Assembly (NCBI GenBank): GCA_903937035.1
Contig: CAIZXS010000004.1
Coordinates: forward strand, 4,693-68,692
Reading direction: 5' to 3'
Source: an uncultured bacterium
Lineage (GTDB): Bacteria > Patescibacteriota > Minisyncoccia > Moranbacterales > UBA2206
Length of the DNA stretch: 64,000 nt
The notes under the pieces are model-generated. The model was not told where the DNA came from. It saw nothing but the letters and a program-made list of their open reading frames with translations, and searched no databases. Numbering within the stretch: the first letter of the stretch is position 1; each line of letters starts with the position of its first letter. The translations under genes and the position numbers were made by a program. Below are positions 1,213-62,268 of the stretch, in pieces.

Positions 1213-1418
1213 TGTCATCCTCGCGGATGCGGGGATCCAGTGTGAAGGCTTAATAAAAAAAATATCAGCCAGATGTTTTGATAGTTGAAGAAGCACAGAG
1301 AACTAATCAAAAAAGTAGAGCCACCCAGAAAGAGTTACATTCTAATATGGCCTTGAGACTGGATTCCCGCCTTGCTCCACCGCTAAAGCTAAGGCGGCAC
1401 GCGGTCGCGGGAATGACA
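1213..1418. mobile_element. MITE-like element, family A, copy 1 (two ~28-bp hairpin-forming terminal inverted repeats flanking ~130 bp)
   Basis: Left end tgtcatcctcgcggatgcggggatccag. Right end ctggattcccgcc...gcgggaatgaca is its reverse complement, with a 38-bp insertion in the loop. Same architecture recurs at 58956-59144. Confidence 0.6.
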
Positions 1419-5805: not shown

Positions 5806-5952
5806 CTTGGAGGAGTCTTGGCAAAAAGGAATTAGGAGCTGAATTCGCCCCTGGTTCCTTTTTTCTTTGGGAAAAAATAAAATTCATCTCATCTTCGACG
5901 CGGCAAAGATGAAGTGGATTTGGGGATATTTTTGTGGTATTCTTGGGATATC

Positions 5953-6672
5953 ATGGACTATAAATACACCAGCCTAATAATATCCAAAAGAGACATCTCG
6001 GAAGTGGACCGGATCTATAATTGCTATACTTTGGAAGATGGAAAAATCCAAGCTGTTGGGCGTGGTGTGCGTCGTCCAAACGCAAAGTTGGCAGGGAATT
6101 TGGAGCCACTAACGCATTGTGAAATCTATGTTTCCAAGCGGAAAGGTTTGGGTAATATTACCGGTGCGATTGCTGTGAATAACTTTTTATCCATAAAAAA
6201 CGATTTTTCGGCGATTAGTCGGGTCTTTTGGGCGCTTTCCCATTTCGACAAGTTGATCTCTCAGCAAGAGAAAGATGCGTATGTTTTCGAGCTGCTTATT
6301 GCCTACCTAGAAGCAATGGAAAAATTAAGTGGGGAAAAGAAAGCGGAGTATAAATTTGACATTGTTACTTTGGGATTTCTTTTTCGGCTCACTGAAAATT
6401 TGGGGTATAAAATTCGAGTGGAGAATTGTGCCAACTGCGGAAGGAAAATCACAGCGGGGAATGAGAATTTTTTTAGCGCTGAGCGAGGTGGGGCGTTGTG
6501 CGCCATTTGCGCCAAGACAGAAAGAAAAAAAGTCAAAAATAGCGACACGTCAATAAAGCTCGTGAAAATATTTTTAAAAAATAAAATTAGCAGTTTTTCC
6601 AAGCTGGAGGTGGCGGAAAAAGATTTGCGTGAGTTGAAGCTGATTTGGAATGAATTGATTAACTGGGTGTAG
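5953..6672 (+). CDS. recO: DNA repair protein RecO
   Basis: N-terminal OB-fold region (SLIISKRDISEVDRIY...GKIQAVGRGVRRPNAKLAGNLEPL) and C-terminal Cys4 zinc finger (CANCG...CAICA). Start placed at MDYKY, which aligns with RecO N-termini; the ORF track's 5914 start is an upstream extension. Confidence 0.85.
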   Translation: MDYKYTSLIISKRDISEVDRIYNCYTLEDGKIQAVGRGVRRPNAKLAGNLEPLTHCEIYVSKRKGLGNITGAIAVNNFLSIKNDFSAISRVFWALSHFDKLISQQEKDAYVFELLIAYLEAMEKLSGEKKAEYKFDIVTLGFLFRLTENLGYKIRVENCANCGRKITAGNENFFSAERGGALCAICAKTERKKVKNSDTSIKLVKIFLKNKISSFSKLEVAEKDLRELKLIWNELINWV

Positions 6673-18814: not shown

Positions 18815-21634
18815 ATGAAAGAAAGTTTTGCATTTAATAATCAACCAGCAGCTAAAAAAAATAAAATAATTGAGTTCCCTCAAACTGAGGAAAAAAGAAA
18901 GCAGCTTGAACTTGCTAAGGCAAAATCTGGAATGGCTAGCGGTGAAAAAAAACACATTGGCGTCGATGCAGAAACTGATATGATTAGAAAAAAAGGTGAT
19001 GAGGTTCAAGAAGGTGCTTTCGCGGCTTATCAAGGAGAGGACACGCAGGAAGTGGCAGTCGAGCCAGTTTCAAAAGGCATTGACGCAAAGACGGATCACA
19101 TCAGGAGAGATGCTGATGATATGCAGGAAAATGCTTTCGCAGCTTATCAGGTGGAGGATGCTGAAAATGGGACAAAAACTGATCCAGTTTCGAGAGGTAT
19201 CGATGCGAAGGCAGATATCATTAGAAGAGAGGATGATGAAATGCAAGGAAGCGCTTTTGCGGCCTATCAAGAAGAGGCTGGCGATACTGGCAAGAAAAAA
19301 ACTGATGGTGTTAAGCCTGAAGCAGATATCATTAGAAGAGAGGATGATGAAATGCAGGAGGGTGCTTTTGCAGCTTATCGAGGGGAGGTTGGTGATATTA
19401 TTCCTGCTGGAGAAAAAGAGAAGACTGACGCCAAGAGAGAGGCTCGGAAAGATATGGGCAGAAAAATTGGCAAGAGCATGGAGGAAAAGGACGATGGTCG
19501 GTTTAAGATGGGCGAAGAAAAAGAGTATAGCCCTGAAGAGCAAGAAAAGCTTGGCAAGCTCGAAGAGCTGACGATTTTAGTGGAAGAAAAAAGAAAGGCC
19601 TATGCCGCTGAGGATTATAGGACAACAAATATTTTCACAAAGCTCAAAAGCGTGCTGGGCATGAAGACTGAAAATTTACCGACTGGTGCCAAGGATTCAT
19701 TTGCTTATCAGCAATATCAGGGAGCATTGAATGAGTTGCGAAATTTACAAATCCAGACGCTGCGAGATAAATATGCCAACATGGATAATTTGCCACCAAC
19801 TGAAAAAGCGGCGGCGATGACGGAAATGAAAAAAGAGATGGGCGAGATGGCGACATATTTTGGATTCACCGAGAAACTTGATTTAGCGGGAGCAAGGACG
19901 GATGCGCGAACAGCAGCTTGGTCAGAAACGAAGATGGGAAGATTTGGAGAGAAAGCTTTGAAATGGAGCGCTGAACGGATTAACGAATACCGCAAGTTGG
20001 ATCCAAAAATTAAAATGGCTATTGCGATAACTCTTTTCTCGGTTGGAGGTATCGCCGCATTTACGGGATCAGCTGGTGTAGTGGCTGGTGTGGCTGGTGT
20101 GAACTTAGTTCGCAGATGGCTTGGCGGTGCGGCACTTGGCGCTGGAATAACAGAGGGCATGGAGGCACGTTCAAGGAACAAGGTGAGCAAAAAAGCAGAA
20201 AAAGACAAGCATGAAATGACGGGAAATGTGGAAAGAAGTTTGCAAGAGCAAATTCAGGCGCTTAATGAATATTGTGGTAAGGAAATGAAGACCTATCATG
20301 ATGGTTTGCAAAAAGAGAAGAGTCAAGCGAGAAACAGAAAATTAATTGGAATGAGCGCTGGTGTTGCAGTGGGATCGGGGGCAGCCGGGTGGCTTATCGG
20401 GAAGGGATTTGGTCTCGTGAAAGATGGGGCAACTAGTCTTTGGGAGCATGTGAATGTGGGTGGCGCAGATGAATCTGGAGGGCTAGCTTTTGCTAGTGAA
20501 CCGGCGCCGGTCGAAGTCAGCACGAATCCTATCGACCATGCAGATTCTGCTCATGAAGCGACGCATGCTGGGGCGTCTGATGGTGACAGGTTTGGTTCGG
20601 CTGAGGTGCCAGTGTCAACACATGGGGCCTCTGAGTATGTCGCAGCAAAGGGCGATAGTGTTGAGAGGATAATGATAAATCAGAAAATTGCCGAAGGCAT
20701 GAGCCCTCATGACGCAGAAACATTGGCTCATCAGATAGCGTCAAATCCTGATAATGAAGAAACTCTTAAAGAGCTGGGTAAAATTAAACCGGGACAGAAG
20801 GTTATCGTTGATTGGGAAAAGGGAACTGTTAAGGTGGATCGCATCCTTAGTGCTCATATCAACAATCCAGATGCGCATGCAGAAGGAGCAGGGGTTCATC
20901 AGCCTTCGGTTGAAAAAGCGATTCCGGTTGGGCCAGATGTCAGCGCCACTTCAGAAGCACCAATCTCCGCAGGTGTAGGGCCAGATGTGGAACCTCATTC
21001 CAGTTCGGTTGACAGTGGTGTGGGTACGCAAGAGGGAGTAGAAAATGGTAGTCCGGACTCAAGTGCACAATCACATGCTTCGGCTGATGGAGATCGAATG
21101 CATCAAGAATTAAGCAATGAGTATCAAAAAGTTTACGGCAAGGGTGGCGCTGAAATATTAAGAAATATTCAGTCGATGCCGGAATCTATGCAAGCCCACA
21201 GAGAGGAACTACTAGATCTTGGTAGATTAAAGGTTGCAGCGGAAGAGGCATACACAAGAGCTGTGGGTGATACTAGTGATGTCAGTGGCGCAAGAGCGGC
21301 AGCGCTCGAATCAGCTAAAGTTGGTTATGAAAAGGCTTACGCGAAGGCCTTTAATTCACTTGCCAGAGAGACTTTTGCTGGACAGCAGATTGAAGGTGGG
21401 GTAGCGGGGCTAAAAGCTGTTGGGGCGGCTGAATTTTTGAGTAGCGAAAATGGACAGAGTTCAAAGCTCGTAGAATTGAAGGGCTATGTGGCCAAGCAAT
21501 TTGGAACTAATTTTTCTAATCCACGTCCCGGAGAGAATATGTTTTCTTGGACAACTAGAATGATTAAGTCATCGCTCGAAGCTGGCGGCGTAGAATATAA
21601 AAACTTTAAGTTGTTAGATCGTGGCGGGAAATAG
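18815..21634 (+). CDS. large hypothetical protein with N-terminal tandem 40-aa repeats, central hydrophobic/Gly-Ala-rich segments and acidic C-terminal region
   Basis: 939-aa ORF. Four to five repeats of D..IRR[ED]DDEMQEGAFAAYQ.E. TM-like segments AIAITLFSVGGIAAFTGSAGVVAGVAGV and LIGMSAGVAVGSGAAGWLIG. Confidence 0.7.
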   Translation: MKESFAFNNQPAAKKNKIIEFPQTEEKRKQLELAKAKSGMASGEKKHIGVDAETDMIRKKGDEVQEGAFAAYQGEDTQEVAVEPVSKGIDAKTDHIRRDADDMQENAFAAYQVEDAENGTKTDPVSRGIDAKADIIRREDDEMQGSAFAAYQEEAGDTGKKKTDGVKPEADIIRREDDEMQEGAFAAYRGEVGDIIPAGEKEKTDAKREARKDMGRKIGKSMEEKDDGRFKMGEEKEYSPEEQEKLGKLEELTILVEEKRKAYAAEDYRTTNIFTKLKSVLGMKTENLPTGAKDSFAYQQYQGALNELRNLQIQTLRDKYANMDNLPPTEKAAAMTEMKKEMGEMATYFGFTEKLDLAGARTDARTAAWSETKMGRFGEKALKWSAERINEYRKLDPKIKMAIAITLFSVGGIAAFTGSAGVVAGVAGVNLVRRWLGGAALGAGITEGMEARSRNKVSKKAEKDKHEMTGNVERSLQEQIQALNEYCGKEMKTYHDGLQKEKSQARNRKLIGMSAGVAVGSGAAGWLIGKGFGLVKDGATSLWEHVNVGGADESGGLAFASEPAPVEVSTNPIDHADSAHEATHAGASDGDRFGSAEVPVSTHGASEYVAAKGDSVERIMINQKIAEGMSPHDAETLAHQIASNPDNEETLKELGKIKPGQKVIVDWEKGTVKVDRILSAHINNPDAHAEGAGVHQPSVEKAIPVGPDVSATSEAPISAGVGPDVEPHSSSVDSGVGTQEGVENGSPDSSAQSHASADGDRMHQELSNEYQKVYGKGGAEILRNIQSMPESMQAHREELLDLGRLKVAAEEAYTRAVGDTSDVSGARAAALESAKVGYEKAYAKAFNSLARETFAGQQIEGGVAGLKAVGAAEFLSSENGQSSKLVELKGYVAKQFGTNFSNPRPGENMFSWTTRMIKSSLEAGGVEYKNFKLLDRGGK

Positions 21635-22480: not shown

Positions 22481-22533
22481 CTTCCGAACCATGATTCGTC
22501 TGATTAATTGAGGGGCTATGATTTTTCAAGGGA

Positions 22534-22929
22534 ATGATTATTGAGGAGAAATATAAATATTCGGATTTGACGGGTAAAATTATCGGCGCAGCAATGGAGG
22601 TGCACAAGATTTTGGGTAATGGTTTCCAGGAGGTTATCTATCAAAGAGCGCTAGCAATTGAATTAGATAATCAGAATTTGTCTTTCGTTCGAGAACAAGA
22701 AATGCAAATTGAGTATAAATGCCAAGAAATTGGGCTAAGAAGAGTTGATTTTTTTGTTGAAAAGAAGGTGATGGTGGAAATTAAAGCGTTAATTCAGCTT
22801 GAGGATGTGCATTTGGCTCAAGCGATTAATTATCTGGAGGCGTACAATCTGGAAATAGGTTTGCTTATAAATTTTGGTTCAAAAAGTTTACAGTTTAAGA
22901 GGCTGATGAGAAAAATTAAGAAATCATAG
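22534..22929 (+). CDS. GxxExxY family protein (PD-(D/E)XK-like)
   Basis: LGNGFQEVIYQRALAIEL carries the G-x-x-E-x-x-Y signature; the downstream ..RVDFFVE..VMVEIKA.. pattern also fits this family. Confidence 0.75.
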   Translation: MIIEEKYKYSDLTGKIIGAAMEVHKILGNGFQEVIYQRALAIELDNQNLSFVREQEMQIEYKCQEIGLRRVDFFVEKKVMVEIKALIQLEDVHLAQAINYLEAYNLEIGLLINFGSKSLQFKRLMRKIKKS

Positions 22930-22968
22930 CCTATCAAATAATCATTTTAATCATAGTTCAAGATAATT

Positions 22969-25428
22969 ATGGATTACGCATGGCTTATTAGTAGTGTGCT
23001 TTTGGTTTCAGGAATAGCGACTTTGCTTAGTGGCGCTTGGCTTGTTGTAGCAAGCTTTTTGGGTTTTCGCGCTCAGGTCAATCAATCAATGAATCTGGAT
23101 CTTGATGTGATTCGCGTTTCAAAAATCAATAAGAGTGAGGAGGAAAAAACCAAAGAAGGGGAAAATTGGAAAGGCGAGATTGGAGCGATGGAGCAAATGC
23201 TTACGGCTTTTTCCTCAATTAGGGACACGCGGAGTTTTTTCAAAAAGCTGCTCTATGGTTCGCCTGCAATCTCATTGGAGATTGCTAATTCTTCCAAGAG
23301 TGAGGAAATCGTTTTTTTTATTGCGGTGCCAAGAAAATTTAGGGAAAATATCGAAAAACAGATTCATAGTTTTTTCCCATATGCATCTTTGGAAAAGACA
23401 ACTGATTTCAATATTTTTTTTCCTGGGAGTAAGACTGAGGCGTCAATTATTAAGTTGAAAAATAAATTCGCTTTGCCGATTCGTACCTATGAAAATCAAG
23501 AAATGGATCCGCTAAATGCCATTGCTAATGCACTTAGCAAGCTTGATACCGTGAGCGAGGGAGCAGCAATTCAATTAGTCTTGCGGCCAGCTGGAACGGC
23601 TTGGCGCGGAGAAGGGCGGCGCATTGCTCATGAGATGCAGCAAGGGAAAAGACTGCGCGATGTTGATAAATCTTTTATGGCAAAAGTGGGAAGTGAGCTT
23701 GGTTCTGCGGCGCTATCCGTTATCACTCCTACAAAAAAAGACGATCCAATGTCGGGGGATAAAAAAAATGTGCAGCTTACTCCAGAAGAACAAGAGTTGG
23801 TGAAGGGAATTGAAAAAAAAGCCTCAAAAACCGGATTTGAAACTAATATTCGTTTAGTGACGTCGGCTGCGACAAGCGAGCGAGCTCAGGAAATTTTAGC
23901 GCATCTTGAAAATGCTTTTGCGCAATATGAAAATGCGGATATAAATTGTTTCCAAGTGCAAAGAAAGAACAAGAAGGTAATTGCTTTTGATTTTATCTTC
24001 CGCAACTTTAAATCGGAAGAAAAAATGATTCTGGGAGTCGAGGAGATTTCTAGCATTTTTCATATTCCAATCTCCACCACTGAAGCGCCAAAAATTAAAT
24101 GGCTCAAAGCGAACGCTGCTCCACCTCCAGTTGGTATTCCTACTGAAGGGATACTTATTGGTTTTAATGAATATCGCGGAGCAAAAACAGACATTCGCCT
24201 AACAGAGAATGATCGAAGAAGACATCTCTATGCCATTGGCCAGACTGGAACGGGAAAGACAACCATTTTACAGGAAATGGCCAAGCAGGATGCCAAGGAA
24301 GGACGAGGATTTTGTTTTATTGATCCGCACGGTGATGCGATTGAGGATATTTTGGCTTGCATTCCCAAGGAGCGCGCCCAGGATGTGGTCGTATTTGATC
24401 CATCGGATGTTGAGCGGCCATTTGGGCTTAATATGCTCGAATATGACCCAGCCTTTCCAGAACAGATGACTTTTGTGATTAATGAAATGATTGGCATTTT
24501 CGATCAGCTCTATGACCTCAAAGCGACAGGCGGACCGATGTTTGAGCAATATATGCGCAATGCGATGTTTCTTGTGATGAGTGACCCGGATTCAGGATCG
24601 ACTTTAATGGAAATTTCCAAAGTGATGGCGGATGAGGATTTTCGTGCAATGAAACTTTCCAAATGTACCAATCAAACAGTGATAGATTTTTGGACCAAGG
24701 AAGCGGAGAAAGCCGGCGGTGAAGCGGCACTGGCTAATATGGTGCCCTACATCACCTCCAAGCTGACGCCGTTTATTTCCAATGACATGATGCGTCCGAT
24801 TATCTCTCAACAAAAAAGCACGATCAATTTTCGCGATATCATGGATAATAAGAAAATTTTGCTTGTTGCTCTTTCTAAGGGAAAAATCGGGGAAATTAAT
24901 GCGCGACTTTTAGGCATGGTGATTGTGGGAAAAATTTTGATGTCAGCGCTTGCGCGTACAAATATTCCGGAAAATGATCGTGTTGATTTTTATTTATATC
25001 TCGATGAGTTTCAAAATGTCACAACGAATTCTATCGCGCAAATTCTATCCGAGGCGAGAAAATATCGACTCTGTCTTAATATTGCCCATCAATTTATTGC
25101 TCAGCTCAAGGAAGAGATTTCAAAGGCTGTGTTTGGGAATATTGGTTCTATGATTCTTTATCGTGTTGGCCCGGAAGATGCGGAATTCCTAGAGAAGCAA
25201 GTGGCGCCGACTTTTACGCGGAATGATTTGGTGAATGTGGATAATCACAAGGGATTTGCCAAGGTTCTGATTGATGGCGTGCTTACTAAGCCTTTTAATA
25301 TTCAGGGTTTTCCTCCGACCAGAGGTGACCAGGAAGTGGCTAATGCTATCAAGGAACTCTCGCGACTCACCTATGGTCGCGACCGGCACGTTGTCAATCA
25401 AGAGATTATCGCTCGGACGAGATTTTAG
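22969..25428 (+). CDS. membrane-anchored VirD4/TraG/TraD-like (type IV coupling protein family) FtsK/HerA-superfamily ATPase
   Basis: N-terminal TM. HLYAIGQTGTGKTT Walker A, then CFIDPHGDAIEDIL and VVVFDPSD...FGLNMLEY as in T4CP nucleotide-binding domains. Walker B YLYLDEFQNV. Confidence 0.7.
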   Translation: MDYAWLISSVLLVSGIATLLSGAWLVVASFLGFRAQVNQSMNLDLDVIRVSKINKSEEEKTKEGENWKGEIGAMEQMLTAFSSIRDTRSFFKKLLYGSPAISLEIANSSKSEEIVFFIAVPRKFRENIEKQIHSFFPYASLEKTTDFNIFFPGSKTEASIIKLKNKFALPIRTYENQEMDPLNAIANALSKLDTVSEGAAIQLVLRPAGTAWRGEGRRIAHEMQQGKRLRDVDKSFMAKVGSELGSAALSVITPTKKDDPMSGDKKNVQLTPEEQELVKGIEKKASKTGFETNIRLVTSAATSERAQEILAHLENAFAQYENADINCFQVQRKNKKVIAFDFIFRNFKSEEKMILGVEEISSIFHIPISTTEAPKIKWLKANAAPPPVGIPTEGILIGFNEYRGAKTDIRLTENDRRRHLYAIGQTGTGKTTILQEMAKQDAKEGRGFCFIDPHGDAIEDILACIPKERAQDVVVFDPSDVERPFGLNMLEYDPAFPEQMTFVINEMIGIFDQLYDLKATGGPMFEQYMRNAMFLVMSDPDSGSTLMEISKVMADEDFRAMKLSKCTNQTVIDFWTKEAEKAGGEAALANMVPYITSKLTPFISNDMMRPIISQQKSTINFRDIMDNKKILLVALSKGKIGEINARLLGMVIVGKILMSALARTNIPENDRVDFYLYLDEFQNVTTNSIAQILSEARKYRLCLNIAHQFIAQLKEEISKAVFGNIGSMILYRVGPEDAEFLEKQVAPTFTRNDLVNVDNHKGFAKVLIDGVLTKPFNIQGFPPTRGDQEVANAIKELSRLTYGRDRHVVNQEIIARTRF

Positions 25429-28398: not shown

Positions 28399-31300
28399 AT
28401 GAAAAAAAAATTAAATGGAGGCTTGATAATCGTGTGTATAGTGTCTTTTATTTTCTCTGGACAGTTGGTAACCGCTGCAGAACCTTCAGCGGACATTTCC
28501 CCCGATAAGGCTTTGGAAACACGGCGTGAGCCAGGAGGGTCTGCAGGAGGGGCAATTGCGTCAGAACAGATGGATGTTGTCGCTGATATCAATTTTCGCA
28601 GCCCCCTTCTTTTAAAGCAAGAAAGTAATAAGCTGGAGCTTTTTTTTCGCCTGGAAAATAATTATTCCAAAAGCGAAGCCGGCATTCGTTATGGCGTTCG
28701 ATTGATTAAGGATGAGACGTTGTATGACGAGAGAGTGTATTCCGCTGATGTGCTTTCAATTGAGGGAAATAGCTCTACTCAAAAAGTGTTTTCTTACCAG
28801 GCTCCAAGTTATCTCGCTGGTGATTTTGAGTTGTGGCTAGTAGCTAAAAATGAAAGTGGTCTGCCGCTAGCTGTTTTAAAATTAGAAAAGCCTATAGCGC
28901 TTAGTGGTTCTGGTGAGTATTTGGAAATCAATACCGATGCTTGCGGATTAAAAATCGAGGGAGGTGGGAATAGTAAGGTTTATTCATTACCTCAAGGGGC
29001 ACCGCTTAAGCCAGAAGAAGACTTGACATTTAGTTGCGAAGTTATCAGTCATTTCAAGGAAGCTGCTTCGATCTATCCTTTGCTGAGTACTTTTAAGTAT
29101 TCTCTCTATGGCAGTTCAGCCGACAATGATCAGCGAGGGGCGGAGCTAGTTCTCCAACCGGGAGAGAAGAAATTTGTCGATTTGACGATTGATAAGCCCG
29201 CCGCGCCTCAGACATATGAAGCGAGGGTTATTTTTTTGAAAAGTAATGCCCTGGCAGTTGTTTCTCGTCCAGTAATTTTGCGCTATGTTGTTTCCGGCGA
29301 AAGTGCCATGATCCAAAAATTAGATTTAGACAAAATTAGTTATCAGAAAGGAGAAATAATTGACGCTACTTTATTGTGGTCTGGTTCAGTGGGCAATTCT
29401 GATGATTCGCACATTGTCAATGCAGCTAGGAAAAAGGTAACAGCTGATTTGGCGATAACCAATCAGGGCAATCAACTCTGCGCGCAAATTCAGGGACAAG
29501 CCTTGGATCAAAATTCAAACACAGCTAAGTTTGAGCTTAAATCTGATATTGATTGCCCTAATCTGAATGTTAAAATAATCCTCAAAGATGAGCAAGGCAA
29601 AGTCTTGGCGGAAAGAGACTTGCATTTTCAAAAAAATAAAATCAGCGAAGGTGGAGCTCAAAAAAGTAGTCCAAATAATATCAAAAAAACAGTGTTATTG
29701 ATAGTATTCATAATTCTGTTATTTTTAGTAATTGCCATTGTTGCTAAAATACTTTTTTCTTACAAAAAAAACAAAACTGAAAATTTATTATTACTTTTGC
29801 TTTTGTTCGGGGCTTTGTTTAATTGGAGATTACAAAATGTGGGAGCTCTTACACTTTCTAAGCCATTTAATAGTTGGGGAGCTTTTAGTTATTCTGTAAA
29901 TTTAAATAAAGGATCAGGAATCTACAACCCAGGAGAGGAGATATCCGTGATATATGACGGAAGTGCAGCCCTCACTGGTTGCGTTAATTATTCTGGTGGG
30001 AATACTACACTATTAGCTGCAACGAACACATCGGGTAGCTGGTCTGGTTTTGGCTGGAAGGGCAATGACCAGTTCACTGATGCGAACGGTTGTACCGTTA
30101 GCAATTTTGGTTCTTGGAGTGCTGGTAATGCGCCATCGTCAAGTGGTGTCATTTCTCTCAAGGCTTGTATAACTGGAGAAGGCTCTGGGGGTGTTGCCGC
30201 TAATTGCTCCGGCACAACATCTGGTGGTGGCAATTTTGATTTAGCGACTGGTGATATTTATTACACGGTTGCCCCTCCCTCCAATCCTACTTGTGAAATT
30301 CATTTTAGCGATAGTTCTTATACTGTCAATAATTGGGGGCCTTTGACTTGGTCGACTTATGATTCAACAGGAGGGACGCTTTATTGTACCGGTCTTTCGC
30401 CGATATTAAATGATCCTAATACTGCTACGAGTTATACTAATTATGGTATTTATTTAAATCAAACAGGTGCGGTTTATTGCACATTTACTCCTTATAATGG
30501 GACAAATGCCGGAACGCCTTGTTATGCTTCTGCGGTAGTTAGCGCGGTAATTCCCACTCCTACGTGTACTGTTTCATTTTCTGACACAGACATTCAAGCT
30601 CCTGGTACGGTATATCTTACCTGGAATTCTTCCAATGCGGATAAGACAATCGGTTCTTGCTCTGGTATTGGAAGTCCGGTTCCAGCGGCTGATTATGGCT
30701 TGGCTTATAGTAATTATCCTGTTGCTTTTGTTGCGACGGATAGTGGGACAGAGACTTGTACTTTCACGCCATATATTGGCGCAACTGCTGGAACTCCTTG
30801 TTCGGCGAGTGTGCTGGTGAGGCCACGAGGGGTTTGTGGTATTGCCAATGGAACATCCTCATGCACGCAGCCGACTACTGGCCTTTGTGATTCATCGAGT
30901 ACTGCTTCTACAGTTGCTGGCTCTGGTCCATGGATTTGGACTTGTGCGGGAGCTAATGGTGGTGGCAGTGTGAGTTGTTCCGCTACTAAGAGTTGCGCGC
31001 CAGCTTCATGTCATGCTTCATTTTCTCCTTCTAGTATAACCACTACATTAGCCACTCCCGCTGCTTCTGTTCTTGCGTGGGATTCCACGGGTGATTCAAT
31101 GACGGTTTCCTGCACAGGGCCAATGCCGATTAGCCCTGCGGTGAATGTTACTAATCCTGCGAGTGGTTCTGGATCTGTTCCCTTTACTGTCGATCAAACT
31201 GGAACAGAGACATGCACATTTACTCCATATAATGGAGCAACTCCAGGCACTACTTGCGAAGCGACCGTTTCCGTTAAGGCTGATGCAGTCTGCGGTTCTT

Positions 31301-32475
31301 CAAATGGAGGCACTTCCTGTTTGGCGCCAACTAGCAATCTTTGCACCTTGGGCACATTGCAAGGAGCTCCGGTGGTATATTCTGGTACATGGTGGGGATG
31401 GACATGCTTGGGATTGAACGGTGGTGCTAATAAGGTTTGTAGTACAATAATAAACTGCACTAGTCCTTCTTGTGTTGCGAATTTTTCACCAACGAGCTTG
31501 ACTGCTCCGGGAACTTCTTATCTTACATGGACTCCTTCTAATGCTGATAAGATGCTTGGTACATGCTTTGGAATTGGCGCAACAATTCCGGAGGGTGATT
31601 ATGGACTGTCCAATACTGTTGGTTATCCTTTCGCTTTTACTGCCTTGCAAACTGGAACAGAAACTTGTACGTTCACTCCATATATGGGAGCAGTAAAAGG
31701 CGCCCCTTGCTCTGCTAGTGTAGTAGTTAATGATACTTGTGAATGCAGCACGATATTCAGCGGTGGGACACCTTGTCCATCGGGATCAACTTGTGACGGT
31801 TGCCATTGTATTCCCGCTACTTCATATACTTGTATGCCAGTAGCTCCACCTGTTGGTACAACAAAGTGTCCCTTGACTAGAGAAACAGGTTTTAGTTCTG
31901 CTCAGCCATGGACGAATCGCGGAACCTTTTCTGTTTGCACCGGAGCGCTTGGAATATGTGAGTATTATATTCCTAGTGGAACATTCGGTTGTAATCCGGT
32001 CGCTCCACCGGTAGGAACAATAAAATGCCCTGGAACGAGAGAGTCAGGTTTTAGCTCTGCTCAACCATGGACTCCCGTGGGAGCAGTTTCTTCTTGCAAT
32101 GGATTGAGTGGTATATGTGAATATTATACCCCAGCTGGAACATTTGGTTGTAATCCAATAGCGCCACCGGCAGGAGCAACAAAATGCCCCGGAACTCAAG
32201 AGGCGGGTTTTAGTTCTTTGCAACCATGGACAAATAGGGTGACTTTTGGTGCTTGCACTGGTGCAAGCGGAGTTTGTGAATATTATTCTTGTCCATCAGT
32301 GCCTCAATGTTACTATCCAACCACTTGCACTCCTGGTATTTGCGGAACTCAAAATGAAGAATGTCTCCCTGTCTCTCCACCTGGATGCGCTGTTCCAGCT
32401 TGCCTCGCAACTTCTTGCACAGGAACGGTGTATTGTCCTTGCAATTCGGGAGGATGGCAGGAGATTTCTCATTAA
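28399..32475 (+). CDS. giant Cys/Thr/Gly-rich modular surface protein (signal peptide, central TM, tandem Cys-bearing modules)
   Basis: 1358 aa. Signal peptide MKKKLNGGLIIVCIVSFIFSGQLVTAAEP. TM TVLLIVFIILLFLVIAIVAKILF near residue 440. Four ~150-aa modules ending ETCTFTPY.GA.GTPC.ASV, two CG..NG.TSC..PT..LC modules, and three 51-aa C-terminal repeats CNPVAPPVGT.KCPGTRESGFSSAQPWT. Confidence 0.8.
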   Translation: MKKKLNGGLIIVCIVSFIFSGQLVTAAEPSADISPDKALETRREPGGSAGGAIASEQMDVVADINFRSPLLLKQESNKLELFFRLENNYSKSEAGIRYGVRLIKDETLYDERVYSADVLSIEGNSSTQKVFSYQAPSYLAGDFELWLVAKNESGLPLAVLKLEKPIALSGSGEYLEINTDACGLKIEGGGNSKVYSLPQGAPLKPEEDLTFSCEVISHFKEAASIYPLLSTFKYSLYGSSADNDQRGAELVLQPGEKKFVDLTIDKPAAPQTYEARVIFLKSNALAVVSRPVILRYVVSGESAMIQKLDLDKISYQKGEIIDATLLWSGSVGNSDDSHIVNAARKKVTADLAITNQGNQLCAQIQGQALDQNSNTAKFELKSDIDCPNLNVKIILKDEQGKVLAERDLHFQKNKISEGGAQKSSPNNIKKTVLLIVFIILLFLVIAIVAKILFSYKKNKTENLLLLLLLFGALFNWRLQNVGALTLSKPFNSWGAFSYSVNLNKGSGIYNPGEEISVIYDGSAALTGCVNYSGGNTTLLAATNTSGSWSGFGWKGNDQFTDANGCTVSNFGSWSAGNAPSSSGVISLKACITGEGSGGVAANCSGTTSGGGNFDLATGDIYYTVAPPSNPTCEIHFSDSSYTVNNWGPLTWSTYDSTGGTLYCTGLSPILNDPNTATSYTNYGIYLNQTGAVYCTFTPYNGTNAGTPCYASAVVSAVIPTPTCTVSFSDTDIQAPGTVYLTWNSSNADKTIGSCSGIGSPVPAADYGLAYSNYPVAFVATDSGTETCTFTPYIGATAGTPCSASVLVRPRGVCGIANGTSSCTQPTTGLCDSSSTASTVAGSGPWIWTCAGANGGGSVSCSATKSCAPASCHASFSPSSITTTLATPAASVLAWDSTGDSMTVSCTGPMPISPAVNVTNPASGSGSVPFTVDQTGTETCTFTPYNGATPGTTCEATVSVKADAVCGSSNGGTSCLAPTSNLCTLGTLQGAPVVYSGTWWGWTCLGLNGGANKVCSTIINCTSPSCVANFSPTSLTAPGTSYLTWTPSNADKMLGTCFGIGATIPEGDYGLSNTVGYPFAFTALQTGTETCTFTPYMGAVKGAPCSASVVVNDTCECSTIFSGGTPCPSGSTCDGCHCIPATSYTCMPVAPPVGTTKCPLTRETGFSSAQPWTNRGTFSVCTGALGICEYYIPSGTFGCNPVAPPVGTIKCPGTRESGFSSAQPWTPVGAVSSCNGLSGICEYYTPAGTFGCNPIAPPAGATKCPGTQEAGFSSLQPWTNRVTFGACTGASGVCEYYSCPSVPQCYYPTTCTPGICGTQNEECLPVSPPGCAVPACLATSCTGTVYCPCNSGGWQEISH

Positions 32476-33106: not shown

Positions 33107-34240
33107 ATGTTTGATTTTAGTTTCAAAAAAAATGTGTTTGTTGGTGTCGACATTGGAACAGCTGCTATTAAAGTAGTTGAGCTTACTGTTGTGGAGGGAA
33201 AACCGATACTTTCAAATTACGCCTGGATGTCTCTTGATGGGAATAATATTGGAAAAGGAGACGAAAACGTTGAATATTTTCAGGTTATTCTTCCGCAATG
33301 CTTAAAGAGAATCATCAAAAAGGCTAAGTTTTCAGGGCGAGATGCCTATGTTTCTTTGCCAGCTTTTGGAGGGCTCATAACACTTATTGATTTTCCCGAA
33401 ATGGCTGATAATGACATGGAGCAAGCAATCAAGTTTGAGGCGCACAAATATATTCCAACCTCACTAGATGAAGTGGTGATTAGTTGGGAGATTGTGGAGA
33501 GGGAAAATCGTTCTGCGTCTTTGATTAAAGAGATTCCTGTTTCTGGTAATTCTGGAGATGCCAAGGAGACTGATTCTGGCGTACGGGTCAAGGTTTTGCT
33601 CGTAGCTGCTTCACGAAAAAAGGTTTTGAAATATGAAAATCTAGTCAAGCTTTCTGGATTGGACTTGAAATCGATTGATATTGAAACATTTTCAGTTGTG
33701 CGCTCGCTGGTGGGTAATGATATGGGTAGTTTTGTTATTGTGGATATTGGTGCGCGAGTTTGCAATATTATCCTGGTTGAAAAAGGGGTGATTAGGATTA
33801 ATCGAAATATTGATGCGGGTGGAGCGGAAATGACCAAGACAATTGCCAAAGCCATGGGAATTGATACAGAAAGAGCAGAAGCGCTCAAGGTTTCTGGTAA
33901 GAATTTTTTTGAAACTGAATCAGCGATTAGTTTTTTCACACTTGAGCTGATTACGGGTGAAGTGGAACGAATGATTCGTGCATATTGCAAAGATGGTGAA
34001 CGGGACAAAATTGAGGAGATTATCCTTTCTGGCGGAACATCAAGGCTGACAGGTATTGAGGATTATTTTTCCAATAAGTTGAAAATAAAAACAACGGTTG
34101 GTAATCCTTTTGCACGAATCAGCTATGACAGTCGGCTGAAATCAACCATCGCAGATATTCAAAATAATCTGAATATTGCAGTAGGATTGGCATTGAAAGG
34201 TGTGGATGAATATTTGAAAGATAATTTAAATAAAAAATAG
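33107..34240 (+). CDS. pilM: type IV pilus assembly protein PilM (actin-like ATPase fold)
   Basis: VGVDIGTAAIKVVEL N-terminal actin-fold phosphate motif, DIGARVCNI second motif, 377 aa. Confidence 0.85.
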   Translation: MFDFSFKKNVFVGVDIGTAAIKVVELTVVEGKPILSNYAWMSLDGNNIGKGDENVEYFQVILPQCLKRIIKKAKFSGRDAYVSLPAFGGLITLIDFPEMADNDMEQAIKFEAHKYIPTSLDEVVISWEIVERENRSASLIKEIPVSGNSGDAKETDSGVRVKVLLVAASRKKVLKYENLVKLSGLDLKSIDIETFSVVRSLVGNDMGSFVIVDIGARVCNIILVEKGVIRINRNIDAGGAEMTKTIAKAMGIDTERAEALKVSGKNFFETESAISFFTLELITGEVERMIRAYCKDGERDKIEEIILSGGTSRLTGIEDYFSNKLKIKTTVGNPFARISYDSRLKSTIADIQNNLNIAVGLALKGVDEYLKDNLNKK

Positions 34241-34329
34241 TTAAAACAATTTAAAATATTTCGCTGAGCTTGCTTTTAAGCAGGGTCGTCTAGGATGATG
34301 GACGAATCTAGCGAAGTAGGAATAAAAAA

Positions 34330-34842
34330 ATGGCAAATATAAATTTAGTTACAGACAGAGAAAATGCGAGAATGCTTGGAACCGGCACTACAGTGCTTCT
34401 GGTAGCATTCTTTGTTGTCATACTGATTTATGGAGGACTGATTTTCTATGGAAATAAGCTGGGGACTGATTTGACAACAGCTAAGGAAGAATATGCAGCT
34501 AAATTCAATATTTTCGCTATTGGTGATTCTAAAAAAGTTTTAGATTTTCAAAGCAGATTAACAATTTCAAATGAGCTTCTTGCGACGGAACGGGACAATG
34601 GAAAGGACCTGGAAAACATTGAAAGCGTAATGATTGATGGTGTATATCTTGATTCCTATGTCTACGATGAGTCAACTAAATCAATTAAGATTGATTGCTT
34701 TGCCGACAGTTATGAAACGGTGGCAAAGCAAATTTTGAGTTTCAAGGGTGATGACTATTTCTCAACCGTACTTGCAGGCGAGACTAAGATTGATACGAGA
34801 AGAAAGATGATTAATTTCCCCGTTGTTTTAACGATTAAATAA
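34330..34842 (+). CDS. pilN: type IV pilus assembly protein PilN-like
   Basis: Short cytoplasmic N-terminus, single TM (TTVLLVAFFVVILIYGGLIFYG), periplasmic domain. Position between pilM and pilO. Confidence 0.65.
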   Translation: MANINLVTDRENARMLGTGTTVLLVAFFVVILIYGGLIFYGNKLGTDLTTAKEEYAAKFNIFAIGDSKKVLDFQSRLTISNELLATERDNGKDLENIESVMIDGVYLDSYVYDESTKSIKIDCFADSYETVAKQILSFKGDDYFSTVLAGETKIDTRRKMINFPVVLTIK

Positions 34843-34847
34843 AAAAT

Positions 34848-35639
34848 ATGAAAATAAAAATACTATTAGCTCCGGGACTAATCGTTGTTATCGTAGTTGC
34901 AATTATCTGGTATGTCTATCCGGCCTATGATGGTGTGGATGGTGTTAGAGAGAGGGGTGCGAAAATGGCAGGTCAGGAAGCGCTTATGGCTAAATTGGAT
35001 GGTAATATTAGTAACGCGGAAAAATTAGGAGCAGAATTGAGTGCTAATGCTACTCAAAATGCAGTTGTTTTTGATTATATTCCCAAGAGTAAAGAGGAGG
35101 AGAAAATTATTGAAAATCTGAACTTGCAAGCAACAGGAAGCACTTTGGCTGTATTGGAAATTTCGGTTTCCGAGTTGTCGGATGTTGCCGCTGCCGCAGA
35201 GGTTAGTACGCTTTCAATTGCGCCGCCCATTACTGATCCTGTTACAGGAGCTGTTGTGCCCGAAGCGCCAAAATTGGTGCCTAAGAAATTGAAAGTAAAG
35301 TATTCCGTTGTTGGTGATTATGCGAATATTAAAGTTTTAATAGGAAAAATCCAAAAGCTGAAAAGATTTAACAAGTTCTTGGGACTGGACATAAAAACAC
35401 TAATGACGGAAGGGCAGGAGGTAAGTAATTCCTTGCAAGCGAATATGATGCTAGAGTTTAACTATTTAAATGAACCAAAGCGACTGACCGATGCTGATTT
35501 GGGTAATGAGATTTTTTCAGCCACAGAAGGTTTTGATAAGCAGATTATTGGAAAAATACGTGAGAGTAGAAATGTTGAAGTTAATAATGTTATGCCGGGA
35601 CAAAAAAGAGGGAATAATCCTTTTATCATTACAAAATAA
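34848..35639 (+). CDS. pilO: type IV pilus assembly protein PilO-like
   Basis: N-terminal TM (LLAPGLIVVIVVAIIWYV), coiled coil plus ferredoxin-like region. Stop overlaps the pilB start (TAATG). Confidence 0.6.
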   Translation: MKIKILLAPGLIVVIVVAIIWYVYPAYDGVDGVRERGAKMAGQEALMAKLDGNISNAEKLGAELSANATQNAVVFDYIPKSKEEEKIIENLNLQATGSTLAVLEISVSELSDVAAAAEVSTLSIAPPITDPVTGAVVPEAPKLVPKKLKVKYSVVGDYANIKVLIGKIQKLKRFNKFLGLDIKTLMTEGQEVSNSLQANMMLEFNYLNEPKRLTDADLGNEIFSATEGFDKQIIGKIRESRNVEVNNVMPGQKRGNNPFIITK

Positions 35640-37303
35640 TGACTCCGAAAGATGATGATGTAAAAAAAGAAGAAGCGGTTGCTGCGGAGGGACTTCGGCA
35701 GAATATTTTGCGTGAGGCGCCGAAAACTGTTGCGGGCAGTCTTGTTAATATGCTTCCCAAGGAAGTTGCGGAGAAATATAGCATGATGGTTTTTGACAAG
35801 GTAGGAGATGTTTTGAAGGTGGCAATGGCTGATCCAGAAGATGCGCAAGCCTTGAATACTTTGAATTTTGTAGCGGAAAAAGAGAGGGCCAGAATCGAAA
35901 CTTATGCGGTTTCGCAAAAAGTATTTGCTGATTTATTTGCTTTCTATAACGAAACGAACGAAGCACTAAAGGAAGCAGTTGATTCTTTTGAAGATGAGAA
36001 GGATCAATTGGCGATTGAGGATAGTAATAATGATTCACTGGGAAAGAAGAAGGAGGCGGAAGTGTTGAAAGATGCTCCTGTTACGAAGTTGGTCGAGGTG
36101 ATCATCAGCCATGCTGTAGAGGGAAAGGCGAGTGACATCCACATTGAACCGATGGACAAGGATTATCGCGTGCGTTTTCGAGTGGACGGCGTGTTGCATG
36201 TTAGTTTGATTTTTCCAATTGAGATTGGTCCGGTGGTGATTTCTCGCATAAAGATTTTGGCTAATTTAAAAATTGATGAAAAGAGAAAACCGCAAGATGG
36301 TCGGTTCCGACTGAATTTTAACAAAAAAGATATTGACTTTCGCGTCTCATCCTTGCCTGTTGTTGGTGGAGAAAAGATTGTAATGAGAATCTTAGATAAG
36401 GATAGCGGCACAAGTAGCATTGAGAATCTTGGACTCGTGGGGATGGCAAAACATGATATTAGCGTAGCAATTCATGAGACATACGGGATGATTTTGATGA
36501 CTGGGCCGACTGGTAGTGGAAAATCAACCACGCTCTACACTCTTTTGAAAATTTTGAATAACGAGGAGCGCAATATCATCACACTGGAGGATCCGGTGGA
36601 GTATTTCATTGAAGGACTAAATCAAAGCCAGATCAAGCCGGAAATCGGCTATACTTTTGCTTCAGGTTTGCGAACTGTTTTGCGTCAAGATCCCAATGTA
36701 ATTATGGTAGGAGAAATTCGTGACGCGGAAACGGCAGAACTGGCGGTTCACGCCGCTCTCACAGGACATTTGATGTTTTCTACGTTGCATACGAACACGG
36801 CGATTGGCGCTATTCCGCGTCTAATTGACATGAAAATTGAGCCATTCTTGCTTTCTTCGTCACTTCGAATGGTGATTGCTCAACGTTTGGTGAGGCGAAT
36901 TTGTGAAAAATGCAAAAAAGAGATTACGGTTTCTCCTGTGGTCAGCGGGGGGATAGCGGAAAAAATAAAGAATATCAACGAGAAAGAATTGGAAAGCTAC
37001 GGAATAAAGTTGGAGGATGGACTTAAATTTTATCATGGCGACGGATGTGACGCTTGTAATGGAACGGGGCTCAAAGGGCGCGTGGCAATCTATGAGGCAG
37101 TGCCGGTGACAGAGGAAATTAGGAATATCATTATCGAAAAAAGAGGCAGCGAGGAATTGATCAAAAAAGAACGCGATCGGATGGGAGTGATTACAATCGA
37201 GCAAGATGGCATCTTGAAGATTATCCAAGGTCTCACAACGATCGAAGAGGTGGAACGAGTAACGGAGTGTAACTTCACAACTCTGACCGAGGAAAATGAC
37301 TAA
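35639..37303 (+). CDS. pilB: type IV pilus assembly ATPase PilB (GspE family)
   Basis: N-terminal GspII_E_N-like domain, Walker A LMTGPTGSGKSTTLYT, Asp/His boxes, C-terminal tetracysteine CEKC...CDAC. Confidence 0.95.
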   Translation: MTPKDDDVKKEEAVAAEGLRQNILREAPKTVAGSLVNMLPKEVAEKYSMMVFDKVGDVLKVAMADPEDAQALNTLNFVAEKERARIETYAVSQKVFADLFAFYNETNEALKEAVDSFEDEKDQLAIEDSNNDSLGKKKEAEVLKDAPVTKLVEVIISHAVEGKASDIHIEPMDKDYRVRFRVDGVLHVSLIFPIEIGPVVISRIKILANLKIDEKRKPQDGRFRLNFNKKDIDFRVSSLPVVGGEKIVMRILDKDSGTSSIENLGLVGMAKHDISVAIHETYGMILMTGPTGSGKSTTLYTLLKILNNEERNIITLEDPVEYFIEGLNQSQIKPEIGYTFASGLRTVLRQDPNVIMVGEIRDAETAELAVHAALTGHLMFSTLHTNTAIGAIPRLIDMKIEPFLLSSSLRMVIAQRLVRRICEKCKKEITVSPVVSGGIAEKIKNINEKELESYGIKLEDGLKFYHGDGCDACNGTGLKGRVAIYEAVPVTEEIRNIIIEKRGSEELIKKERDRMGVITIEQDGILKIIQGLTTIEEVERVTECNFTTLTEEND

Positions 37304-37332
37304 GTATATTTTTTATTTTTAATTATAATTTT

Positions 37333-37722
37333 ATGGAAGAGCAGAAAAAGAAGATCATGATTATCGAAGATGACTATTTTGTTATGGACATCTATCACAC
37401 AAAACTTACACAGTCCGGCTTTGATGTGATTAGTGCAAATAACGGACTTGACGCGTTAAAAAAGTTACAAGAAGAAAAACAAATTCCCGATTTGATTTTG
37501 CTAGACATTATCATGCCCTATCTTGGCGGATTGGAAGTTTTGGAGCGGATCAAAGCCGATGAGCAATTAAAAAGTATCCCAGTAATTTTGCTCACCAATT
37601 TGAGTCAAAAAGCTGAGATTGATAAGGGAATGGGGTTGGGAGCAAAAGATTATTTAATCAAATCTCATTTCACGCCATCAGAAGTTTTGGAAAAAATAAA
37701 TTTACTCATTGGTAATGCTTAA
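37333..37722 (+). CDS. single-domain response-regulator receiver (CheY/PilH-like) embedded between pilB and pilT
   Basis: IEDD, LLDIIMP (phosphoacceptor Asp), LLTNLS and KDYLIK are all canonical. Confidence 0.85.
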   Translation: MEEQKKKIMIIEDDYFVMDIYHTKLTQSGFDVISANNGLDALKKLQEEKQIPDLILLDIIMPYLGGLEVLERIKADEQLKSIPVILLTNLSQKAEIDKGMGLGAKDYLIKSHFTPSEVLEKINLLIGNA

Positions 37723-37728
37723 ACATTT

Positions 37729-38799
37729 ATGTTACGAACTGAACAAAAAATAAAAAATTTGCTAAGAATTGCCGCGCAACGCGGGGCTTCAGATTTACAT
37801 TTGGTGGTTGGTCGCTATCCGACCTATCGAATTGACGGAAAACTCATCTCGCTCAATCAAGATGAGATTATTACGCCTGAGGTTACGCGTGAAATTTGCG
37901 ATGTTGTTTTGAATGAAGAGAAAAAAAAGCAACTGGAAAAGGAAGGGCAAGTTGACCTGTCCTATAATTTTGAAGACAAGGTGCGTTTTCGTGTCAATGC
38001 TTTTTTTCAACAGGGCTATACGAGCATGGCATTTCGTCTGATTTCCAAAGATATCCGGACACTAGAGGAATTGGGTGTACCAGAAATTCTTTATGATTTC
38101 ACCAGAGTTTCCCAAGGATTATTTTTAATGGTGGGGCCGGTGGGACATGGAAAGTCGACGACGCTAGCAGCCATGATTGATGACATTAATCATAACCAAG
38201 AAAAGCATATTTTGACCATTGAAGATCCAATCGAATATGTCTATGAACAAGATCGTTCAATCATCAATCAAAGAGAGGTCTACCAGGATACGAATTCTTT
38301 TCAATTGGCACTTAAGGGGCTGTTTCGGGAAGATGCCAATGTGGTGCTTATTGGTGAGCTGCGAGACCTGGACACGATTTCTGCGGCAATGACGGCTGCT
38401 GAAACAGGGCATTTGATTTTTGGGACACTTCACACTAATGATGCTCCGCAAACTATTGATCGGATCGTAGATGTCTTTCCGGCTCATCAGCAAAATCAAG
38501 TTAGAGCGCAATTGGCCAGCGTGCTTTTGGCCGTTGTCTCTCAGCGCTTGATTCCCAGAGTTGATGAGGGTCGGTCTCCAGCGGTCGAGATTATGATTAA
38601 AAATCACGCGGTGGAAAACTTGATTCGAGAGAATAAAAGTTATCAAATCGGCAATGTGATTGAAACAAGTTCACAAGAGGGGATGGTGACAATGGACCGT
38701 TCACTGGCAGATTTAGTTAGGCGGGGCTTGGTTTCACTTGAAATTGCTTCGGCCTATGCAAGGGACACAAAAAATTTCGAAACGCTGCTCAGATACTAG
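37729..38799 (+). CDS. pilT: twitching-motility/retraction ATPase PilT
   Basis: LMVGPVGHGKSTTLAAMI Walker A, 356 aa, lacks the GspE N-domain. Confidence 0.9.
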   Translation: MLRTEQKIKNLLRIAAQRGASDLHLVVGRYPTYRIDGKLISLNQDEIITPEVTREICDVVLNEEKKKQLEKEGQVDLSYNFEDKVRFRVNAFFQQGYTSMAFRLISKDIRTLEELGVPEILYDFTRVSQGLFLMVGPVGHGKSTTLAAMIDDINHNQEKHILTIEDPIEYVYEQDRSIINQREVYQDTNSFQLALKGLFREDANVVLIGELRDLDTISAAMTAAETGHLIFGTLHTNDAPQTIDRIVDVFPAHQQNQVRAQLASVLLAVVSQRLIPRVDEGRSPAVEIMIKNHAVENLIRENKSYQIGNVIETSSQEGMVTMDRSLADLVRRGLVSLEIASAYARDTKNFETLLRY

Positions 38800-38836
38800 T
38801 TGGAAATTTGCTAAATTTTCTATTTATTTGAAATGA

Positions 38837-38845
38837 TGGTATAAT
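38837..38845 (+). promoter_or_regulatory. extended -10 promoter TGGTATAAT upstream of pilC
   Basis: tttgaaatgatggtataataaaa. Internal promoter within the pilus cluster. Confidence 0.4.
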
Positions 38846-38905
38846 AAAAAAGTTGTAGAGTTGGAAATTTTGAAAAAATAAAAAAAATGATTGAGGGTGA
38901 AAAAT

Positions 38906-40114: not shown

Positions 40115-40148
40115 AAAAAATTTTAAAAACTAGAAAGGCGGGTGAAAT

Positions 40149-40544: not shown

Positions 40545-40611
40545 GGTTATGAAAAATAATGATGGATATGTAATATAAAAAATTTATATAACTAGAAGGA
40601 GAGGTGAATTT

Positions 40612-61524: not shown

Positions 61525-61658
61525 ACACTTCGACTCGCTGATGCTCGCTCAGTGCAGGCACAGCAAGCGTAGTAGTTTAAAAAAGAATCAAAATAATAAT
61601 ATCGTCGAAGTGTTGCCCTGAGCTTGTCGAAGGACAATTTTTCAAGTTTTTGCTCTAG

Positions 61659-62070
<412 letters not shown>

Positions 62071-62225: not shown

Positions 62226-62268
62226 CATCATAAGTCATCCCGCCAAGGCGGGACCGTCCCCGCAAACT

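Follow-up and report, generated by a model that had tools for sequence, protein, structure and literature searches.

The 28-nt Neisseria Transformation Sequence (NTS) has been defined as CGTCATTCCCGCGMAVGCGGGAATCYRG and includes the dRS3 repeat, ATTCCC-N8-GGGAAT (Chenal et al., Nat Commun 2025, PMC11893778). Its hairpin is bound sequence-specifically, as single-stranded DNA (ssDNA), by SsnA, a single-domain GIY-YIG protein of 94 aa that has no action on double-stranded DNA or RNA and cuts the sense strand a few nucleotides 5' of the hairpin (PMC11893778). Cleavage and binding depend critically on the GTC that precedes the palindrome and on the C that follows it, and cleavage survives removal of the loop, its extension, and a change of its identity (PMC11893778). 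NTS hairpins in Neisseria lower the integration of NTS-bearing transforming DNA, and the motif has been generalized to "Ssn-related motifs" (SRM), which are found in many bacteria and for which a REP-like analogy has already been drawn (PMC11893778). dRS3 repeats also bound the NIME, a dRS3-RS-dRS3 unit with low-GC spacers of 50 to 150 bp that belong to many families and produce a GC wave; NIMEs form long arrays and have been held to be Neisseria-specific (Parkhill 2000; Bentley 2007, PMC1797815). In addition, dRS3 is a documented phage integration target (PMC1797815).

Hairpin modules in the window

The window, which is the whole 64-kb stretch of DNA that was analyzed, comes from a Moranbacterium (Candidatus Moraniibacteriota, Patescibacteria/CPR), as judged from GatC homologues, and contains four copies of a module, TGTCAT[C/T]C[C/T]CGC-loop-GCGGG[G/A]ATCCAG. 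The copies are arranged as two inverted pairs, at 1213-1418 (copy 1) and 58956-59144 (copy 2), both of which have the outer ends TGTCAT...ATGACA. The parts of the two elements are as follows.

1213-1240, + strand: compact NTS/SRM module, left end of copy 1, TGTCATCCTCGC-GGAT-GCGGGGATCCAG; SRM match, 8-bp stem, tetraloop
1241-1358, unstranded: spacer of copy 1 (RS-like), AT-rich, 118 nt, 35% GC
1359-1418, - strand: NTS module, right end of copy 1, 36-nt loop
58956-59004, + strand: NTS module, left end of copy 2, long-loop variant with the 25-nt loop ACCCGTTTCACGAGCATAAACTCCG
59005-59116, unstranded: spacer of copy 2, AT-rich, 112 nt, 32% GC; contains a further palindrome, about 59075-59111
59117-59144, - strand: canonical NTS module, right end of copy 2, TGTCATTCCCGCGAAGGCGGGAATCCAG

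A loop-tolerant NTS pattern was run on the window and on 200 dinucleotide-preserving shuffles of it, and it matched 4 window sites versus 0.0 expected. The published SRM pattern, HGTCWYN(0-2)YYVSBRHN(0-5)WNVSBRGN(0-2)RNCYNB, matched 2 window sites versus 0.12 in shuffles, and these are exactly the compact modules, 1213-1240(+) and 59117-59144(-); the long-loop modules, 1359-1418 and 58956-59004, fail the pattern solely by having a loop of more than 5 nt. An earlier note on this DNA, made from the letters alone, had described a shared architecture at the two loci with one long-loop and one compact hairpin at each. Both statements hold, with four modules in two inverted pairs, none of them in shuffles, and loops that measure 4, 36, 25, and 4 nt in window order (4/36 and 25/4 nt by locus).

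Folding of the modules as ssDNA gave an 8-bp stem in all four, and the GTC 5' of the palindrome and the C 3' of it are kept in four out of four. Module 59117-59144(-) agrees with the Neisseria NTS consensus at 27 of 28 positions and holds an exact dRS3 at 59121-59140, and the left modules carry the dRS3 variants ATCCCC/GGGGAT. One stem position is C-G in the left modules of the window and T-A in the right modules. In 185 modules of other genomes, stem position 7 is T-A in 162, C-G in 21, C-A in 2, and T-G in none, a covariation which indicates that the hairpin itself is under selection, and the head (T)GTCAT is present in 169 of them. The G+C content is 61 to 64% in the modules, 32 to 35% in the spacers, and 40.5% in the window.

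Judged by sequence, the modules belong to the NTS/dRS3-type Ssn-related motif family, since one of them matches the NTS at 27 of 28 positions, two fit the SRM pattern, and the other two fail on loop length alone. The earlier note had called such elements little documented in very small genomes; the family itself is a documented one, the hairpin being the NTS/dRS3 Ssn-related motif of Neisseria and many bacteria (PMC11893778, PMC1797815). A resemblance of the stem to type I-E CRISPR repeats was also considered and was dropped because the repeats are arranged as inverted rather than direct copies and lack regular spacers.

Spacers and surroundings of the two elements

The spacers had been put at about 130 bp with patchy similarity to each other. 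They measure 118 and 112 nt, and no above-chance similarity was found between them, the best local match being 9 nt long (E = 0.04). In copy 1, the inverted repeat runs 13 nt further into the spacer (CCAGTGTGAAGGC / GCCTTGAGACTGG), and the inverted repeats of the elements come to about 37 to 41 nt in all, the NTS included. With dRS3-type inverted repeats, spacers of 118 and 112 nt within the NIME range of 50 to 150 bp, and a GC wave, the window copies appear to be non-coding versions of the NIME type (dRS3-RS-dRS3). NIME-style arrays were absent from the window and the strain loci, where only isolated doublets occur. The copy 1 spacer is 97% identical to a spacer in a related Moraniibacteriota metagenome-assembled genome (MAG), L084 (comparison loci are given by L numbers). 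The right part of the copy 2 spacer, together with the right NTS, has an 84% identical counterpart, 70 nt long, in a half element that L084 carries at a different locus.

Copy 1 lies between an HTH-phosphoribosyltransferase (PRTase)-like gene (57-1037) and an SPFH gene (1528-2301), and copy 2 lies between gatC (58663-58944) and gatA (59194-60648), so that both full elements are intergenic, as had been supposed. Copy 1 is flanked by two hairpins.

1173-1210, + strand: hairpin resembling an intrinsic terminator, with a T run, directly 5' of copy 1, a direct repeat of 1443-1480
1443-1480, + strand: terminator-like hairpin with a T run, 3' of copy 1, from the terminator scan

The hairpin at 1173-1210 is preceded by a remnant of an NTS right end (GCGGGGGATGA), and an intact NTS right end occupies this place in L084. 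The two hairpins are part of a repeated unit, [NTS right end]-[terminator], which is also found in L010 (upstream copy), L009, and L084. A hairpin with a perfect stem, 29 nt long (CTTTCAATCCCAC-GCCG-GTGGAATTGAAG), was noted at 1099-1127, after the PRTase gene; neither the upstream repeat unit nor strain L009 has it at the equivalent site, and no second copy was found among all comparison loci. Elsewhere in the window, tandem coding repeats at 18974-19397 and 30448-32286 lie within two very large ORFs (18815-21634 and 28399-32475), which have no Pfam match and are probably repetitive surface proteins.

Gain, loss, and recombination among relatives

The window has 4 modules in 64 kb (0.0 expected), and 2 more lie just outside it; all are intergenic. 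Every contig of this species carries both copy 1 and copy 2. From other samples, two contigs (L006 and L008) end at the same point, 34 nt past the gatC stop, which falls within the left module of copy 2.

The gatC-gatA pair had been regarded as split by copy 2, and this was borne out by the empty junction that the earlier note had proposed to look for in relatives. In L218, a related Moranbacterium whose GatC is 85% identical, the two genes share an ATGA overlap (L218:4279-4282) and no insert is present. Other relatives hold unrelated palindromic inserts of 70 to 221 nt at this junction. Copy 2 is accordingly a lineage-specific insertion, because the junction is empty in L218 and the inserts of the other relatives are unrelated to it. 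Inserts were noted at L215:4283-4503, L216:4283-4426, and L219:4283-4364; they differ in kind, being an AT-rich palindrome or an inverted repeat of the type GGTGAGGGCAAGGG...CCCTTGCCCTCA, and the L215 insert (GGTGAGGGCAAGGG type) also holds a CATCCCCGCCGTGGCGGGGC hairpin resembling the solo hairpin of the window described below. In Moranbacteria, the gatC/gatA junction is a hot spot into which small palindromic DNA has gone repeatedly, and the ATGA overlap is ancestral. No target-site duplication or precise insertion footprint was definable for the gatC/gatA insertion.

The site that is empty in L218 also bears on whether the elements are inserted DNA, as had been suggested, or an ancient conserved ncRNA, and it favors the former. 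A structured RNA or a transcription signal (terminator, attenuator, or mRNA stabilizer), kept for its RNA function, would agree with the strong RNA folding of both elements (z = -4.5 and -6.1), with the compensatory variation in the stem, and with copy 2, which is probably co-transcribed with gatCA since no promoter or terminator match was found there. Such a function is nevertheless highly improbable as the explanation, as both strands fold equally well, location and spacer vary, the elements are absent at orthologous sites, and the inverted pairs occur in any orientation relative to genes. There is also no Rfam match, searches at gathering and permissive thresholds having returned only tRNAs and far-sub-threshold noise, and SsnA does not bind the RNA form (PMC11893778).

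The intergenic region between the first ORF and the SPFH gene had been named as a second place for empty-site alleles. Around the first ORF, the species has a third copy and a presence/absence polymorphism (L010 and L009). The third element, at L010:1169-1374 in the window's own strain, lies 100 to 305 nt upstream of window position 1 (L010 position 1474) and agrees with copy 1 at 197 of the 207 positions aligned, the two copies being about 1.5 kb apart; two direct copies therefore bracket the HTH-PRTase gene (57-1037). The co-occurring strain L009 has one element (L009:2687-2889) and lacks the HTH-PRTase gene, and its element has the variants of the upstream copy and the right flank of the downstream copy. 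To judge from these variants, this is the arrangement that recombination between two copies would produce. Recombination between copies removes or adds a gene cassette. In L084, which is a related MAG with about 86 to 89% nucleotide identity, an element stands upstream of the PRTase gene and a half element resembling copy 2 stands downstream of it.

The L084 orthologue of the right module of copy 1 (L084:1227-1254) is compact and has the loop CTTC. In the window (1363-1414 compared), a 32-nt segment that L084 lacks sits exactly in the tetraloop of this module, and the extra 32 nt are a later, lineage-specific insertion, because the L084 module is compact. The NTS hairpin loop seems to accept insertions.

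The hairpin after tRNA-Asp

A further hairpin stands near the right end of the window.

62228-62253, + strand: solo GC hairpin GTCATCCCGCCAAGGCGGGAC after tRNA-Asp, 6-bp stem; family membership doubtful

This hairpin, given at 62235-62255 in the earlier note, had been counted as a solo copy of the family. It has a GTCAT prefix but a different stem, TCCCGCC/GGCGGGA, and fails the SRM pattern, and the assignment was not upheld. An 11-nt direct repeat of the tRNA-Asp 3' end (CCGTCCCCGCA, at 62217-62227 and 62254-62264) brackets the 26-nt segment and looks like an insertion footprint or an integrase-site scar. The tRNA-Asp of a related species (L133) has no solo hairpin, and a large serine recombinase gene follows it directly.

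Distribution and pairing in other genomes and on viral contigs

Other genomes were scanned for the exact 24 specified bases of the motif with one genome per species, and the figures refer to the matches listed. These matches include at least 13 Patescibacteria MAGs, Nitrospirota, Planctomycetota, and several proteobacterial classes, as well as a Rickettsia endosymbiont, Dehalococcoidia, Cloacimonas, a Nanoarchaeota MAG, and others, and they are also numerous on IMG/VR viral contigs (listed loci L221 to L340). The termini are thus conserved beyond this genome, in line with what had been predicted for other copies, with exact matches across many phyla and on viral contigs. Among the matches listed, 28-mers identical to module 59117-59144 occur at dozens of loci in many phyla. 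The long-loop variant of 58956-59004 (loop ...CGAGGRTAAACTCCG) recurs in Saccharibacteria (L053, 90% identity over 50 nt), Syntrophaceae, Nitrospirae, and others.

Among the matches listed at 120 genome loci, neighboring modules no more than 600 nt apart are oriented "+ then -" in 78 of 94 cases, and the same holds for 31 of 44 among those listed at viral loci. The spacers between paired modules are either 6 to 130 nt long or about 300 to 325 nt long with an SsnA-type GIY-YIG gene inside. Three genome loci with a spacer of about 300 nt (L023, L051, and L080) have a GIY-YIG gene of about 95 aa between the paired modules, and four further NTS-ssnA-NTS units were found on viral contigs (L239, L273, L274, and L282). 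The window elements have the geometry of these units, including the "+ then -" pairing, except that the gene is replaced by a short spacer without coding sequence. Some viral contigs (e.g., L227, L255, and L271) have several modules on one strand only, kilobases apart.

Within the NTS-ssnA-NTS units, the hairpins are 93 to 100% identical, whereas the enclosed genes have only 65 to 76% nucleotide identity. A comparison of the seven units found no near-identical units in different contexts, only orthologous or divergent ones; the sampled ssnA units are old and divergent and hence give no direct sign of recent transposition. Target-site duplications were found neither at 78 doublets elsewhere nor at the window copies. 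Doublet flanks tend to be T-rich 5' and A-rich 3' (on the sense strand, T-rich 5') or to be mutually complementary.

These results bear on the proposal of a MITE or REP-like mobile family made in the earlier note. The part of it that stands is that the family is repeated, forms hairpins, and has been inserted. The part that does not is the classical MITE, given that there is no target-site duplication, that the interiors are unrelated, and that no transposase was detected in the scanned window ORFs, so that MITE is an apt label only in part. A deletion derivative of a DDE-transposase insertion sequence (IS), moved by cut-and-paste through terminal inverted repeats starting with TGTCAT, could account for inverted repeats of about 37 to 41 nt with TG...CA-type ends, for the intergenic location, and for the empty site in a related species. 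It is very unlikely in view of 78 doublets from many genomes and the window copies without target-site duplication, of the unrelated interiors of the two copies, and of the gene inside such pairs elsewhere, which in all seven units among the matches listed encodes a GIY-YIG nuclease of about 95 aa. Among the window ORFs covered by a Pfam scan, no transposase or recombinase domain was found.

REP/RAYT systems have a conserved hairpin head, GTAG. A REP/REPIN doublet mobilized by a RAYT (an IS200/IS605-type Y1 transposase) would share with the window elements a directional hairpin, inverted doublets, recognition as a single strand, and the lack of target duplication, and the analogy is made by PMC11893778 itself. 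With a GTCAT head versus GTAG, no Y1 transposase in the scanned window ORFs, and a GIY-YIG gene as the flanked gene in seven independent loci, there is little to recommend this origin, which has a very low probability.

It is somewhat less improbable, though still unlikely, that NTS hairpins serve as insertion sites for phages or integrating elements and persist for that reason. dRS3 is documented as a phage integration target (PMC1797815), modules are frequent on viral contigs, and the right module of copy 1 carries a 32-nt insertion exactly in its loop. The scanned window ORFs include no recombinase, and none of the four modules contains a prophage, both of which count against such a role. 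This explanation is compatible with the derivation of the doublets from NTS-ssnA-NTS units that is preferred below and does not exclude it.

GIY-YIG nucleases and a second hairpin type

A six-frame HMM search found no SsnA-type gene (SsnA-type GIY-YIG being cd10448) in the 64-kb window. The window has one GIY-YIG gene, at 61659-62006 (PF01541, E = 1e-19), which was considered as the cognate SsnA and rejected, since it belongs to another clade, has no adjoining NTS in 80 homologues, and has another hairpin in 43 of them. An HMM made from NTS-adjacent enzymes gives this protein 39 bits, versus 126 bits from an HMM of its own clade, itself included. It lies closer to the UPF0213 structures 1zg2 and 1ywl than do enzymes of the NTS-adjacent type, and the GIY-YIGs found next to an NTS are all of another clade (YVYILAS.RNGTLYIGVT...NP.W.DL). 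No NTS adjoins the gene in any of its 80 closest metagenomic homologues, and SRM/NTS matches occur in 3 of the 80 homologue loci at about 1 to 2.7 kb from the gene. The window GIY-YIG is therefore probably not the cognate enzyme of the NTS pairs.

A different hairpin was found in 43 of the 80 homologue loci. It has a conserved loop of 14 to 15 nt, CTTCGACARGCTCAG, on a variable, covarying stem, and typically there is one copy on each side of the gene, about 40 nt away upstream and about 50 nt away downstream; arrays reach about 40 copies (L205). A hairpin of this type is present in the window at 61618-61632 on the - strand, 25 nt upstream of the GIY-YIG gene; it is kept in a related species and has a degenerate partner at 61529-61560. 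From its sequence and position, the window GIY-YIG together with the CTTCGACARGCTCAG-loop hairpin looks like a second nuclease-hairpin pair. Among the papers searched, none contained the sequence of this second motif.

The window also encodes a 131-aa PD-(D/E)XK nuclease (ORF 22534-22929; PDDEXK_3, E = 2.5e-37). On either side of this ORF lie 44-nt inverted repeats (22486-22529 and 22916-22959) with 77% complementarity, which resemble IS flanks.

Proposed mechanism and significance

The explanation preferred here, with a probability of roughly 0.72, is that the elements are inverted NTS/SRM doublets, non-autonomous derivatives or relics of NTS-ssnA-NTS units, that act as nuclease sites and as homology for recombination. 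Each element consists of two directional 28-nt hairpins placed face to face around a low-GC spacer. In the Moranbacterium, such derivatives or relics may have spread horizontally, possibly on phages. The doublets would serve mainly as hairpin-forming sites to be cut at both outer borders by an Ssn-type nuclease, which may be encoded elsewhere in the genome or be brought by an incoming element. For copy 1, cuts are predicted near 1205-1212 on the + strand and near 1419-1426 on the - strand. As the sense-strand cut sites would fall just outside both ends of a doublet, the element borders could be severed whenever they are single-stranded, and uptake, replication, and phage infection may be the states that expose them. 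The doublets may also provide portable homology, through which recombination would insert or delete the cassettes they flank.

Genes that may be related to DNA transfer are present in the window.

33107-41067, 49667-50452, 5914-6672, and 22969-25428, jointly: type IV pilus set, recO, and TraG/TrwB-like genes

The type IV pilus set consists of PilM, two T2SSE ATPases, a T2SSF protein, two N-methyl pilins, and a prepilin peptidase, and recO and a gene for a TraG/TrwB-like coupling protein accompany it in the window. The pilus cluster and recO make DNA uptake plausible on circumstantial grounds. CPR organisms are thought to depend on DNA uptake, and because of this dependence, the pilus cluster, and recO, control of incoming DNA could involve an ssDNA-cleavage hairpin.

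A more far-reaching joint reading is that the NTS doublets are mobile through an SsnA-type GIY-YIG acting in trans, with the UPF0213-like GIY-YIG and the CTTCGACARGCTCAG hairpin as a parallel second system. The SsnA-type nuclease would then cut each strand just outside both hairpins, NTS-ssnA-NTS would be an insertion sequence of a new class of GIY-YIG-driven single-strand transposition, and spread across phyla, including CPR bacteria and DPANN archaea, would take place via phages or transforming DNA. This reading is tentative and rather doubtful, with about one chance in four left to it by our estimate.

NTS/dRS3, long held to be Neisseria-specific, was connected only in 2025 with a nuclease that is specific for single strands and restricts transforming DNA (PMC11893778). 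The present data place this hairpin system in ultra-small, episymbiotic CPR genomes and on viral contigs, almost without sequence drift. At the strain level, doublets bracket a gene cassette that comes and goes, and a doublet can come between the genes of an essential operon (gatCA) that otherwise overlap, and the operon survives. The clean division into two GIY-YIG clades with different hairpin types is a practical lead to new ssDNA-specific nucleases; further leads are the second GIY-YIG-hairpin pair and the mobility that NTS units may possess.

Comparison with known systems

Like REPIN/BIME-RAYT systems, the elements are multi-copy inverted hairpin doublets that involve recognition as ssDNA by one associated gene and no target duplication. 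They differ in the head (GTCAT versus GTAG) and in the associated protein (a GIY-YIG nuclease versus a Y1 HUH transposase), and NTS units are at most putative transposing elements. Shared with the NIME are a low-GC spacer of variable family between inverted dRS3-type hairpins, ties to variable or exchangeable neighboring genes, and homologous recombination between units. NIMEs form long arrays, whereas single units occur here, some with loop expansions of 25 to 36 nt.

In contrast to the NTS/SRM-Ssn system as published, the host is a Moranbacterium (Patescibacteria/CPR), the 64-kb window has no SsnA-type gene, and the copy number appears low, with lone doublets and no clusters. The main text of PMC11893778, in which RefSeq representative genomes were used, makes no mention of Patescibacteria/CPR. 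The likenesses to that system are the directional 28-nt hairpin (27 of 28 positions in one module), the retained GTC and C, the intergenic position, the "+ -" inversion as in NTS-ssnA-NTS, and long loops of a kind that SsnA tolerates. What is described here is a known, recently characterized system in a lineage outside the published survey, that is, the extension of a known system and not a new one.
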